Shown piece after piece: positions 29,873 through 34,047 of a DNA stretch of 55,188 nucleotides (positions are counted from its first letter, which is position 1; each line of letters begins with the position of its first letter). This DNA comes from a virus. Its lineage: Duplodnaviria; Heunggongvirae; Uroviricota; Caudoviricetes. The position numbers are program-made. The stretch is from the IMG/VR virus record IMGVR_UViG_2850802633_000006; one strand, 5' to 3'.

Positions 29873-32800
29873 TGACCACTTCACGACGAGTCATGAGAGC
29901 GCTACCTGCTTGACCGTGCATTTCAAATGAGAACTTCTCAGCAGCCGCGACACGGTTTTGCATTTCGCTGATTGCCATATCGGTCAGGCCAGAGAAATCG
30001 AGGAGGTTAATGTCCTTCCCGCCCTCAAGCTCCGTCATGTGGTCATACACCTGCGCCTGAAGCTCATAGCTGTAGCTCATTGCCATGAGGCAAGCTTCAC
30101 GCTTGGGAAAATTGCAAATATCCCTCTCCACAACACCACCTGTTCCGTTGATATAGGTATCAGTTGCAAAAAATTTTGCAGCTGCATCCCCGAGGACTGA
30201 GGTAGCCTGAGTTTAACGGACACTCCTTCCTGAAATAGAATGGCATCAGAAGGAGCTAATAATGAGCAGAAAAACCCAACGTTACTCTAAAGAGTTCAAA
30301 GCCGAAGCTGTCAGAACGGTTCTTGAAAATCAACTTTCGATCAGTGAAGGCGCTTCCCGATTATCCCTTCCTGAAGGCACTTTAGGACAATGGGTTACCG
30401 CCGCCAGAAAAGGGCTCGGTACTCCTGGTTCCCGCACGGTGGCTGAACTGGAATCTGAAATTCTGCAACTGCGTAAGGCGTTAAATGAAGCTCGCCTTGA
30501 GCGCGATATATTAAAAAAATCAACAGCGTATTTTGCACAGGAGTCGCTGAAAAATACGCGTTAATCGAACAATGGCGACAACAATTTCCCATTGAAGCGA
30601 TGTGTCAGGTATTTGGTGTATCCAGGAGCGGTTATTACAACTGGGTACAGCATGAACCCTCAGACAGAAAACAAAGTGATGAGCGGCTAAAACTGGAGAT
30701 TAAGGTGGCACATATCCGCACTCGCGAAACATATGGAACCCGGCGGCTCCAGACGGAGCTGGCAGAGAATGGCATCATCGTTGGTCGTGACCGACTGGCA
30801 CGTCTTCGTAAGGAGCTAAGGCTACGCTGTAAGCAGAAACGCAAGTTCAGAGCGACTACGAACCCGAACCACAATCTGCCAGTTGCGCCAAATCTGCTGA
30901 ACCAGACGTTCGCTCCTACAGCACCAAATCAGGTCTGGGTGGCGGACCTGACGTATGTTGCCACACAGGAGGGATGGTTGTACCTCGCTGGCATCAAAGA
31001 TGTTTATACGTGTGAAATTGTCGGCTACGCCATGGGAGAGCGCATGACAAAAGAGCTGACAGGTAAAGCCCTGTTTATGGCGCTCAGGAGCCAGCGCCCA
31101 CCTGCCGGGCTAATCCACCACTCTGATCGAGGTTCACAGTACTGCGCATACGATTACCGGGTCATACAGGAGCAGTCTGGTCTGAAAACATCAATGTCGC
31201 GTAAAGGTAACTGTTACGACAACGCTCCGATGGAAAGCTTCTGGGGAACGCTGAAAAATGAGAGCCTGAGCCACTATCGTTTTAATAACCGGGATGAAGC
31301 CATCTCAGTAATACGGGAATACATTGAGATTTTCTACAATCGTCAGCGTCGTCACTCTCGTCTGGGGAATATCTCCCCGGCAGCCTTCAGGGAAAAATAT
31401 CATCAGATGGCTGCTTAAAAAAAGAACAAATGGTAGTGTCCGCTATTGCCAGTACACCTCAGACCCTGGGTACTTTCTTCATGAAACTGCGGTGTTCGAG
31501 TTTGCGATATTTCTTACAGGGGAACGCAAGCCCCTCCGCCTCCGCTTTGGATTTCCGATCAGCATTAATGTAATCCACCATCTCAAGACTGCTCATGGTC
31601 GGGTATTCGCCAGAAGGAAGAACGGTTAATGATTTGTTCATGTCGGTATTTCCTTTAGAAAGTTGAGCCTGTTCGCACAGAAAAGCCGTCCCCGAGAGGT
31701 CCTCACCTATACGGCAGTTCTCAGGCTCAGCTTTCTGAAAGACTCGGGATTGTTACGCGCTGCGATGCGCGGTTTACTGCGGACATATAAAAGCCCCGCA
31801 AGTGCGAGGCTCATTAAATGGACTTTGTGATTTGCAAAAAAATTTATTTCAGGCACTGAGTCCTGATGTACTCCTGAAGCATTCTCAATGCTGTCTGGTC
31901 GCTGATGATTCCGTCCCGGATACCGAGAACGTTTCGTCCAGCAACTGGAGAGAGTTCGACGGTGGCATCATTGCCCATGCCGGAGGCGCTGGAGGTTTCG
32001 GCTGAGGATGGCACAGGGCATTTTCCTTTGACGAGCACCCGACCACCATTATCAAGCTTGCGCCGAAGAGCATCATTTTCAGCTTTCGCATCAGCTAACT
32101 CCTTCGTGTATTTAGCATCGAGTGCATCAGCATCACGCTGGCGCTGCTGCATGTCAGTAATGGTTGCGTTCGCCAGCTTCAGTTCTCCGGCGTTTTTGTC
32201 GCGCTGCTCTTTGTAGGTAATGGCGTTATCACGGTAATGATTAACAGCCCATGACAGGCAGACGATGATGCAGATAACCAGAGCGGAGATAATCGCGGTG
32301 ACTCTGCTCATTGATCTATCCCCCAACAGGCTAATGCGCTTTCCTGGTCACGACGAATAACCTGTCCATAGCAGTTATTTGAACGTATGCGGCAATCGCG
32401 CCCAACATCTTTTATCCACCAGCGAATCGCCTCGCATGCGCCCTTACGATCACCGGCATTCAGCCGCTTATAAAACGTCGACGGGAAACACTTACCGGGG
32501 CCAATGTTATAGGGGCAAAATGACGCTATACCCGCTTTCTGGGGTTCGGTCAGAGGTACTTTAATATTGCGCTCCACCCATGCCAGCGCCTTATCACGTT
32601 CAATAGCGTTAACCTGGTCACATTTTTCCTTCGACAGCTTCATTCCCGGTATGACAGGCTTACCATCCACCATTGTGGCACCACGACAGATGGTCCATAT
32701 GCCAGAACCATCACGGTATGCCGTTGTGTGATTACCCTCTTTTTCGTTCAGAAACTGGTCAAGTATCTGGGGAGCAGACGCGCCTGCGGCAATCAGCGCC

Positions 32801-34047
32801 AGAACAGCAGCCGACAGGCCGTATTTGATTTTTGCGCTCATGGATATTTATCAGGATTTATCGGCAACAAATAACGAGCCAACTTATATACGCCTTTTAA
32901 GATAAGTCAGCCCCGGCTGGATCCAGTCATCAGGCTCTTTCTTAAAGGGGGAGTATTGAAATCACGAAGAAGAGCCTCCCGCACCGCAGCATCCATGTCT
33001 GCACCACTGGCAAGTGCTTCAATCTCTGCCGCCACCTGCAAATACCCCATGCAACGGCCAATGCGTTTCATAACTCTGGTGTTTTCGTCTTTCAGGCATC
33101 TGATAGCGAGATTAATAATTTTCAGGCAGTGATGATGCGATGCCCGGACAGGTTTTCCGTTCTCATAAACGACGAACTCACCCTCTTCACAGGAAACCCT
33201 GAAAGGCCGATGGGGTTCCTGGTCTTTATCCGGTGCAGACGCAATAAAATCACTTTTATGCTCTTCCTCTCCGGCACTGTTAACCGTAATGACGTACTCA
33301 GGCCGCAGGTAAGCCGCCTCTTTTTCTGACAATGCGGCCGGTAAAAACTTTTCCTGCAAAAACTTCATAAAAGTCTCGTGAGCGACTTTGTGGCAGTAAT
33401 CGTAAATCGCCGCATAATGCTCATCGCGGCGTTTGTTTTCATCTTCAGAACTCACCAACACCGACAATTTTTTATTAAGCTCAGTGATTTCATTTTCCAG
33501 GTGATTGAATCGCTGATTCATTTCTTCATGCTTCATTATTTACTCTCCCCGTGCAGCCTTACGCTTGTCTTCTCTTATTTTGAAATACAGATTCGTCAGA
33601 TAAGTCAGAAGCCCCAGAAGCAGACTTCCCAGCACACCAATCGCAGCCCACTGTGATGGCCTGACCTGATCCAACCACTGCAAAAACCAGTAGCCGGCAC
33701 TGCCGGCGGAGGTGCCGTAGGCAATGCCCGTTGAAATTTTGTCCATGGATTTCATAGCCTCACCTCCGCAAATAACGGATGGCGTAGTTTTACACTGAGA
33801 AATGAAAGGGATTTGAAAAGAAAAAAACGCAAAAGCGGGCGAAACGATATATACAGTAAGGAAAGCACTCTATCCAACAAACCACCCACAGTTAATCGGA
33901 ATAAAAGCAGAGTGCTTATGAATGATCGCACGCCCGAAGGTTAGTATTTCTGCACAGCAATTTTGCAAAAAAAGGCGATCATTCATAACTTAAACGTCTT
34001 TCAGTCACTCCGGGATTTCCCATCATCGCAGACTGAAAGACTCTGAC

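Follow-up and report, generated by a model that had tools for sequence, protein, structure and literature searches.

The minus strand of the window (the whole 55,188-nucleotide stretch of viral DNA that we analysed) very probably carries, from 33755 to 31844, the late lysis operon of a lambdoid Shigella flexneri prophage, of the kind that combines a pinholin, a SAR endolysin and a two-component embedded spanin. The four lysis genes encode S (71 aa), R (177 aa), Rz (155 aa) and Rz1 (68 aa), and a fifth gene, ORF209, lies between S and R and takes up one third of the interval. S matches the Pfam family "P21 holin S" (PF04971; E 5.5e-35, 119.6 bits with the cut-off at 26, over profile positions 1–63 of 64), R matches PF00959 (E 5.4e-24, 85.3 bits), Rz matches PF03245 (E 4.4e-30, 104.9 bits) and Rz1 matches PF06085 (E 3.8e-21, 75 bits). 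All of these matches exceed the Pfam gathering scores, and with such E values the features of the cassette are not due to chance; furthermore, all four proteins fall in the lysis category of PHROGs. The assignment draws on gene order, reading frames, protein families, hydropathy, catalytic and lipobox motifs, conserved cysteines and near-identity to the cassettes of viable phages, all read from the sequence. As proxies for phage 21 we used EssD and RrrD of DLP12, the PDB entry of R21 and the S21-68 strings quoted in a preprint (bioRxiv 10.1101/2021.04.20.440580). An earlier note had placed a complete pinholin/SAR lysis module in this interval, and each of the features that it named is found there, on the minus strand; its module was incomplete in one respect, as it did not mention ORF209 (33536..32907).

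The S gene (33540..33755, minus strand) encodes a class II, phage 21-type holin/antiholin, which PHROGs also places among holins (phrog_9876 and phrog_20) and whose relatives are labelled "class II holin" by PGAP. It begins with MKSMDK (M1-K2-S3-M4), and neither Met1 nor Met4 varies among five aligned relatives. This bears out the two starts that had been noted by analogy with S21, with start use predicted: initiation at Met1 would give the S71 antiholin and initiation at Met4 the S68 pinholin. The first of two hydrophobic segments (TMD1, approximately residues 8–27) is weakly hydrophobic, with a mean Kyte-Doolittle value of 0.16 and 12 of its 20 residues Ala, Gly, Ser or Thr, and the second (TMD2, approximately residues 36–57) is strongly hydrophobic, with a mean of 1.47; a short charged tail of 13 residues follows. 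S carries the YWFLQW string and, with a single Ser-to-Arg change, the LDQVSPSQ string, both of which are quoted for S21-68 (bioRxiv 10.1101/2021.04.20.440580). The changed position is residue 32 (codon 33662..33660), within the loop between TMD1 and TMD2, where the relatives have Ser or Thr; among the cluster members that were read, S32R is restricted to S. flexneri copies. S is 96% identical to S of phage PhiR47_1, 87% to EssD, 82% to the Qin holin and 77% to 933W S. The likeness to the phage 21 and DLP12 essD holins thus extends from the PF04971 family and the MKSMDK dual start to the YWFLQW patch and the charged tail, and TMD2 differs from theirs at only a few positions.

Just upstream of Met1, the Shine-Dalgarno region of S (GGAGGTGAGG; 33759..33787, minus strand) lies inside a predicted RNA hairpin. 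The Shine-Dalgarno sequence is paired in both the minimum-energy and the centroid folds, but at z = -0.98 the hairpin does not stand out significantly from shuffled sequences, and the consensus fold over six relatives is weak (-1.29 kcal/mol). The hairpin could be an sdi-like element that controls the choice of start.

A canonical lambda-type system, with a large-hole class I holin and a soluble cytoplasmic endolysin, would be suggested only by the lambda-like structural genes of the prophage and the lambda-like N-terminal half of Rz. The lambda cassette does share with the present one its gene order, Q-dependent late transcription, a spanin gene embedded in the +1 frame and equivalent spanin cysteines. 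However, S has 71 residues, lacks a match to any lambda S family, has PF04971 as its sole strong Pfam match and contains two hydrophobic segments instead of three. R, for its part, belongs to the GH24 lysozymes and has a hydrophobic segment at its N-terminus, which sets it apart from the transglycosylase R of lambda. Neither the three-TMD class I holin nor the soluble transglycosylase of lambda is present in the cassette. The Pfam and hydropathy results on S and R refute the lambda-type system, to which we assign next to no probability, and uphold the view of the earlier note that the module differs from lambda S/R even though the structural genes (TerL, C-type protease/scaffold, major head protein, tape measure and J) are lambda-like.

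R (32308..32841, minus strand) is a GH24, T4-lysozyme-like endolysin with the catalytic triad E35-x8-D44-x5-T50, whose residues E35, D44 and T50 are all shared by 933W R, RrrQ and RrrD. Two basic residues near its N-terminus, K4 and K6, precede a hydrophobic stretch at residues 7–27 (YGLSAAVLALIAAGASAPQIL) in which 11 of the 21 residues are Ala, Gly or Ser. Over residues 9–27 (LSAAVLALIAAGASAPQIL) the mean Kyte-Doolittle value is 1.78 in a 19-residue window, compared with 2.63 for the Rz anchor, and the values for the segment as a whole, 1.53–1.78, compare with 2.6–2.7 for the Rz TMD. SAR segments have been described as one to three basic residues followed by approximately 20 charge-free residues rich in Ala, Gly, Ser and Thr, and the N-terminus of R fits this description (PMC9239132). 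Indeed, the hydrophobic, SAR-like segment that had been reported for the endolysin is there, and we predict that R would behave as a SAR endolysin.

Could the N-terminus of R instead be an ordinary cleavable Sec signal peptide, so that a secreted endolysin would be restrained by means other than SAR? An n-region with K4 and K6, a hydrophobic core of 11 residues and a site at A19-G20-A21|S22 that fits the −3/−1 rule, the specificity of signal peptidase I, are in line with such a peptide. The best AXA site, A21-S22-A23, nevertheless precedes Pro24, and a proline at +1 blocks signal peptidase I. Furthermore, in a phmmer comparison R aligns with R21 (3hde; 59 bits) with query residue 12 opposite chain residue 8, and the alignment therefore includes the N-terminal segment of R21. 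R is also encoded together with a pinholin, which is unable to release a folded enzyme. Finally, 933W R, which is 92% identical to R and has the same residues 7–24, is listed as the construct "phage 933W SAR endolysin" of the Young laboratory (PMC9239132). A cleavable signal peptide is accordingly improbable, and an uncleaved SAR segment remains the preferred reading of the R N-terminus.

The description of the module as phage 21-type holds for the holin, with its identity to EssD and its S21-68 strings, but not for R. The protein is 92% identical to 933W R and 93% to RrrQ, and only 37% to RrrD, which equals R21 at every aligned position except two (PDB alignments 3hde and 4zpu). R is also 12 residues longer than RrrD/R21 and contains an extra Cys-rich insert, RDCRIRSNNCY. 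We therefore do not regard R as an R21 orthologue proper but place it in the 933W/Qin-RrrQ subgroup, for which 933W/RrrQ-type is a better label than R21-type, and because identity to the R21-like RrrD is so limited, the details of SAR-dependent activation need not match those of R21. Disulfide control of the P1 Lyz type was also considered and rejected, as there is no Cys in residues 1–51 and hence none in the SAR segment.

The i-spanin gene Rz (31844..32311, minus strand; phrog_13, E 1.6e-75) gives 155 residues from an ATG that overlaps the R stop codon as ATGA; the TTG at 32326 given by the ORF lister is an upstream extension of the same gene. Rz has an N-terminal TMD at residues 4–23 (Kyte-Doolittle 2.63–2.71) and, as a PF03245 protein, a predicted coiled-coil periplasmic domain, and it is a mosaic in which residues 1–85 are 87% identical to RzpD and residues 86–155 only 36%. 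The o-spanin lipoprotein gene Rz1 (31885..32091, minus strand; phrog_3198) starts 220 nt past the Rz start, and since 220 mod 3 is 1, it is read in the +1 frame; it starts inside Rz and stops 41 nt ahead of the Rz stop and is therefore fully nested, precisely as had been proposed. Rz1 spans 0.47–0.91 of the length of Rz, typical embedded o-spanin genes being placed from 0.4–0.5 L to 0.9–1 L (PMC6139136). Its lipobox, V-V-G-C19, fits the consensus [LVI][ASTVI][GAS]C (PMC6139136), and the mature part is rich in proline (8 Pro in 49 residues). The periplasmic cysteines of Rz, Cys98 and Cys153, and Cys27 of Rz1 correspond to C99, C152 and C29 of the lambda spanins (PMC6139136). The Rz1 gene is absent from the automatic annotation of the near-identical block in E. 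coli CFSAN029787.

ORF209 (32907..33536, minus strand; 630 bp) encodes an uncharacterised soluble protein of 209 residues. Its ATG is located 4 nt past the S stop codon, with a Shine-Dalgarno-like run, GGGGAGAG, upstream. The protein belongs to phrog_1085, "unknown function" (E 8e-74), and has no family in Pfam, NCBIfam or PADLOC, the best Pfam match being a sub-threshold one to Relaxase_C (E 0.0098). A hydropathy scan revealed no hydrophobic segment. The protein has a predicted N-terminal helical hairpin and a conserved C-terminal domain; AlphaFold models reached a pLDDT of 55 from 24 sequences and 52 from 61 sequences. A profile search against PDB sequences reached no E value below 0.3, and a Foldseek search against the PDB gave no match at E <= 0.001 (best E 1.3). 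Among 1.84 billion representatives, a profile search picked up just 40 proteins. The longer of these with the same C-terminal domain lack any Pfam domain, and two large matches, to NACHT/HEAT and LRR proteins, were dismissed as spurious, short repeat-like alignments. The homologues come from E. coli and Shigella only and occur either alone or fused behind YdfR/DUF1327, in proteins of 259–333 residues with PF07041 at the N-terminus and the ORF209-like part at the C-terminus. ORF209 itself is not a YdfR/DUF1327 protein, as it has no PF07041 match and is 26% identical to YdfR in a forced alignment.

The gene order S-X-R, where X is a relative of ORF209, is found in all 80 of 80 related viral loci. 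Among the loci, identity within the ORF209 family falls to 46%, while that of R is at least 89%. In the present copy the C-terminus is frameshifted: the ancestral end, ...FKKEPDDWIQPGLTYLKRRI, is legible in another frame from approximately 32950, and the nearly invariant C-terminal W..PG..YLK motif has been lost. E. coli CFSAN029787 has the identical frameshift allele. It is possible, though doubtful, that the phrog_1085 family serves pinholin/SAR lysis cassettes as a dedicated accessory that evolves fast. The invariant position between S and R, together with the divergence of ORF209, fits a lysis-linked role and is equally compatible with a passenger moron. A cytoplasmic ORF209 protein, co-translated right after S, might tune the timing of lysis, for instance via the cytoplasmic tail of S or via the late mRNA through RNase E, a reported binding partner of YdfR. 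Another possible role is in phage-phage or phage-host conflict.

Upstream of S are a Q antiterminator gene (34558..34974, minus strand; PF06530, E 5.8e-54; phrog_79) and, between Q and S, a cluster of four tRNA genes (34048–34358; ARAGORN and Rfam); an Rfam scan of 31000–35500 found only these four tRNAs and antisense artefacts of them. The Q-tRNA-S order is common to E. coli CFSAN029787 and phage PhiR47_1, and Q presumably activates late transcription through the tRNA cluster into S. On the other side, 32 nt downstream of the Rz stop, a consensus scan picked out, as a pattern match only, a terminator-like GC hairpin followed by a T-run (31791..31812, minus strand; 9-bp stem with 6 GC pairs), which may mark the end of the cassette and would be read through under Q antitermination.

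The prophage of the Shigella flexneri host is decayed, riddled with IS elements and defective. Between Rz and the terminase genes it contains IS600, IS911 and a further IS3-family element, with four IS3-family copies just downstream of Rz, and Nu1 is split. Because the prophage is defective, selection on lysis may be relaxed, and the features described above could all be right while the cassette is a relic, altered in function or without any, that may no longer bring about timed lysis; S32R in the holin, the frameshift in ORF209 or a loss of late expression may each be the cause. The split Nu1, the IS3-family copies, the restriction of S32R to S. flexneri copies and the loss of the W..PG..YLK motif all speak for a relic. 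Yet all four lysis proteins retain their full length and each diagnostic residue, the tRNA cluster and Q are likewise intact, and the ORF209 frameshift allele occurs in the CFSAN029787 prophage together with uninterrupted terminase genes. On balance, we consider a relic unlikely, and we retain the reading of the cassette as a late lysis operon.

For its action we infer, from the phage 21 paradigm, the formation of pinholes, the export and tethering of R, the timing of lysis and the function of the present copy. Q-antiterminated late transcription would run through the four tRNA genes into S, whose two starts would yield the S68 pinholin (Met4) and S71 (Met1, with the extra Lys2), the latter acting as antiholin because its added positive charge would keep TMD1 in the membrane. 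Meanwhile, R would be exported by Sec, and its N-terminal SAR segment, weakly hydrophobic and uncleaved, would keep it tethered and inactive. At a critical concentration, the S68 TMD1 would exit the bilayer and TMD2 would then form small pinholes, leading to collapse of the proton motive force. The SAR segment of R would be released into the periplasm, and R would refold into an active muramidase that degrades the murein. Rz in the inner membrane and Rz1, the outer-membrane lipoprotein, would then act as a complex to disrupt the outer membrane.

The overall design is shared with S21-R21-Rz-Rz1 of phage 21 and essD-rrrD-rzpD-rzoD of DLP12, which likewise combine a pinholin, a GH24 SAR endolysin and embedded Rz/Rz1. 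However, S and R abut directly in DLP12, whereas a 630-bp gene separates them here; in addition, the C-terminal half of Rz is only 36% and Rz1 50% identical to the DLP12 counterparts, and S32R is found in the present holin. The Qin prophage of E. coli K-12 (essQ-ydfR-rrrQ-rzpQ/rzoQ) resembles the cassette in having an extra gene in the S-R slot, an endolysin at 93% identity and a holin at 82%, but its slot gene, YdfR (DUF1327, 103 aa), is unrelated to ORF209, and its spanin is of a different family (DUF2514; 33% and 26% identity). Phage 933W (S-R-ant-Rz/Rz1) and the Stx2a phage Stx2_12E129 (S-X-R-Rz) have R proteins at 92–93% identity and holins of the same family at 73–77%. In Stx2_12E129 the S-R slot is likewise occupied by an ORF209 homologue (65% identity), whereas 933W leaves that slot empty but has ant between R and Rz, and its holin starts with MYQM, lacking the Lys2 charge of the present MKSM. 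Unlike the Stx phages, the prophage has no stx genes upstream of S within the window and carries the four tRNA genes there instead.

The nearest sequenced relatives are the E. coli CFSAN029787 prophage and phage PhiR47_1. In the former, the S-ORF209-R-Rz block is 98.8% identical in DNA over 93% of the query and lies in the same tRNA and Q context; it differs in having Ser at position 32 of S, intact terminase genes and, downstream of Rz, genes for ParD/RelE and KilA-N. PhiR47_1 has the same ORF lengths (S 96%, R 98%, Rz 90% identity) but carries YdfR where the present cassette has ORF209. Among 5426 complete E. coli genomes, just 6 contain the whole arrangement, and the exact database matches of all five cassette proteins are S. 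flexneri entries.

The pinholin/SAR/embedded-spanin kind of cassette is already well known. For Stx phages, and likewise for many lambdoid E. coli and Shigella prophages, it has been documented as the norm, and approximately 99% of Stx phages are predicted to carry both a SAR endolysin and a pinholin (PMC8136144). Since the kind is so well documented and all five proteins are already exact database entries, the cassette carries little weight as a discovery, and its main worth lies in correct annotation, namely the missing Rz1 call in a relative and the label of the endolysin. Beyond annotation, the gene family that always occupies the S-R slot might add a further regulator to pinholin cassettes.

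The interval 31844-33755 carries five minus-strand genes: S (33755..33540, 71 aa), ORF209 (33536..32907, 209 aa), R (32841..32308, 177 aa), Rz (32311..31844, 155 aa) and Rz1 (32091..31885, 68 aa). The earlier note had placed a lysis module of S, R, Rz and Rz1 here. These four are indeed present as ORFs with Pfam and PHROGs matches, but the fifth gene, ORF209, was absent from that account. The Pfam matches are well over the gathering score for S (PF04971, 'Bacteriophage P21 holin S', E 5.5e-35), R (PF00959, phage lysozyme, E 5.4e-24), Rz (PF03245, E 4.4e-30) and Rz1 (PF06085, E 3.8e-21), and the PHROGs calls are holin, endolysin and, for the last two, Rz-like spanin. 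The lysis cassette is real, far past chance. Exact Shigella flexneri database entries exist for all five proteins, and the pinholin/SAR/spanin cassette is a textbook system that has been catalogued many times already. The interpretation in the earlier note is supported, with corrections concerning the endolysin type, the mosaic nature of Rz and the fifth gene.

S was described as a dual-start holin beginning MKSMDK, in agreement with the alignment, in which both Met residues of the N terminus (M1-K2-S3-M4) are invariant across the relatives from PhiR47_1, DLP12, Qin and 933W. The protein has a weak hydrophobic segment (residues 8-27, mean Kyte-Doolittle (KD) value 0.16, 12 of 20 residues being Ala, Gly, Ser or Thr) and a strong one (residues 36-57, KD 1.47) followed by a charged tail, as well as an aromatic patch, YWFLQW. 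In the loop, LDQVRPSQ stands where LDQVSPSQ is quoted for the phage 21 pinholin S21-68, and after Met4 S has the residues D2 and K3, to which the S21-68 study ascribes the timing of translocation of the first transmembrane segment (TMD1) (bioRxiv 10.1101/2021.04.20.440580). S shares 96% identity with the PhiR47_1 holin, 87% with EssD (DLP12), 82% with EssQ (Qin) and 77% with 933W S. Because of the start motif, the hydrophobic segments, the S21-68 strings and these identities, S is, as judged from its sequence, a class II, phage 21-type dual-start holin. The lambda-S type is rejected on the PF04971 match, the two hydrophobic segments, the MKSM dual start and the 21-type identities; the structural genes are lambda-like, as had been proposed. 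Within the TMD1-TMD2 loop, residue 32 is Arg (AGG, 33660-33662, minus strand), a position occupied by Ser or Thr in all relatives aligned or read other than further S. flexneri entries; R32 was seen in S. flexneri entries only. A predicted hairpin, a candidate sdi-like element, pairs the Shine-Dalgarno sequence of S, but it does not outperform shuffled sequences (z -0.98) and is poorly conserved among relatives.

The endolysin R has the triad E35-x8-D44-x5-T50, invariant with 933W R, RrrQ and RrrD. Its N terminus was claimed to hold a hydrophobic SAR-like segment, and K4 and K6 are indeed followed by 21 charge-free residues (YGLSAAVLALIAAGASAPQIL), 11 of them Ala, Gly or Ser, the best 19-residue window having a KD of 1.78 versus 2.63 for the Rz anchor. 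This arrangement fits the working definition of a SAR domain, in which one to three basic residues precede a weakly hydrophobic transmembrane segment (PMC9239132), and the stretch can be aligned to the N-terminal region of the phage 21 endolysin R21 (PDB 3hde). That the N terminus is instead a cleavable signal peptide is very improbable: there is a candidate cleavage site, A19-G20-A21↓S22, but the best AXA site, A21-S22-A23, has Pro24 directly after it, and homology speaks against cleavage. The predicted SAR segment has no Cys, which rules out disulfide isomerisation of the P1-Lyz style, in which a SAR cysteine takes part. The label 'phage-21-type' holds for the holin, through PF04971 and EssD, but not for the endolysin: R shares just 37% identity with RrrD, a protein that departs from R21 at two aligned positions, no more, in the PDB alignments as printed, against 92% with 933W R and 93% with RrrQ. 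933W R has been named as the 'phage 933W SAR endolysin' construct (PMC9239132), and a predicted SAR endolysin together with a pinholin occurs in ~99% of Stx phages (PMC8136144). By these comparisons, R is assigned to the 933W/RrrQ type, and within the cassette only the holin is truly 21-type.

Rz starts at ATG 32311, overlapping the R stop as ATGA, and the TTG at 32326 from the ORF lister is an upstream extension. Rz1 starts 220 nt past the Rz start, and therefore lies in the +1 frame, and stops 41 nt ahead of the Rz stop, and is therefore wholly nested in Rz, as originally described; it covers 0.47-0.91 of the Rz length, inside the limits typical of embedded spanins (PMC6139136). Rz has an N-terminal transmembrane segment (residues 4-23), and Rz1 has a lipobox, V-V-G-C19, with 8 Pro among 49 mature residues. 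The periplasmic Cys98 and Cys153 of Rz and Cys27 of Rz1 have their counterparts in C99/C152 of lambda Rz and C29 of lambda Rz1 (PMC6139136). Rz is a mosaic on sequence comparison: identity to the lambda/DLP12-type RzpD is 87% over residues 1-85 but falls to 36% over residues 86-155. Rz1 lies in this divergent half; it shares 50% identity with RzoD of DLP12, is 8 aa longer, and has co-diverged with the C-terminal part of Rz. The Rz stop is followed 32 nt downstream by a GC-rich hairpin and T-run resembling a terminator (31791-31812, minus strand).

Upstream of S are the Q antiterminator gene (34974..34558, minus strand; PF06530) and, between Q and S, four minus-strand tRNA genes (34048-34358; Gly-TCC, Thr-TGT, Arg-TCT and a CAT-anticodon tRNA), presumably within the late transcript. 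The CAT-anticodon tRNA is Met according to ARAGORN, but the E. coli CFSAN029787 annotation gives tRNA-Ile for its counterpart. The Q-tRNA layout is the same in the CFSAN029787 prophage and PhiR47_1. DNA similarity to the CFSAN029787 prophage stops at ~31844, and the sequence downstream of Rz therefore differs between the two. In the window, an IS3-family cluster (24560-31450) separates Rz from the large terminase gene and includes IS600 (30262-31418, plus strand), orfB of a second IS600 (24911-25729, minus), IS911 (28671-29875, plus) and a further IS3-family element (26006-27215, plus). The Nu1 small-terminase gene is split into a C-terminal part (24560-24883) and a putative N-terminal part (27433-27645), which has no Pfam match. 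Given the IS cluster and the split Nu1, the prophage is defective and unable to package DNA, so that lysis may be under relaxed selection; S, R, Rz and Rz1 are nonetheless full length and keep every diagnostic residue. A 60-aa ORF (MNKSLTVLPSGEYPTMSSLEMVDY...; 31459-31641, minus strand) adjoining the IS600 end has no Pfam match and resembles an N-terminal remnant left when the IS interrupted a phage regulatory/antirepressor-like gene.

ORF209 begins 4 nt past the stop codon of S and encodes a soluble protein in which no hydrophobic segment was found. It has no family match in Pfam, NCBIfam or PADLOC, its sole assignment being phrog_1085, 'unknown function', in PHROGs. Structure prediction was poor (pLDDT 55 and 52), no PDB match was found, and among 1.84 billion representative proteins searched with a profile there were only 40 relatives, none informative. 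Homologues occur in E. coli and Shigella only, either as stand-alone proteins of ~185-222 aa or as 259-333 aa fusions with a YdfR/DUF1327 domain in front. At 80 of 80 IMG/VR loci, the relatives (46-100% identity) lie directly 3′ of an S21-family holin and 5′ of an RrrQ/933W-type lysozyme, in the order S-X-R with or without Rz (74 loci) or S-YdfR::X-R-Rz (6 loci). R identity is at least 89% throughout these loci, and the slot-gene relatives diverge much faster. Of 5426 complete E. coli genomes, 1066 contain related DNA and only 6 the complete arrangement found in the window. A C-terminal frameshift at a C5T3 run (~32905-32955, minus strand), also found in the CFSAN029787 copy, replaces the nearly invariant ending of the family, ...FKKEPDDWIQPGLTYLKRRI, which remains readable in another frame. 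[quoted passage not shown] Within the cassette, this S-R slot gene family is the sole thread worth pursuing.
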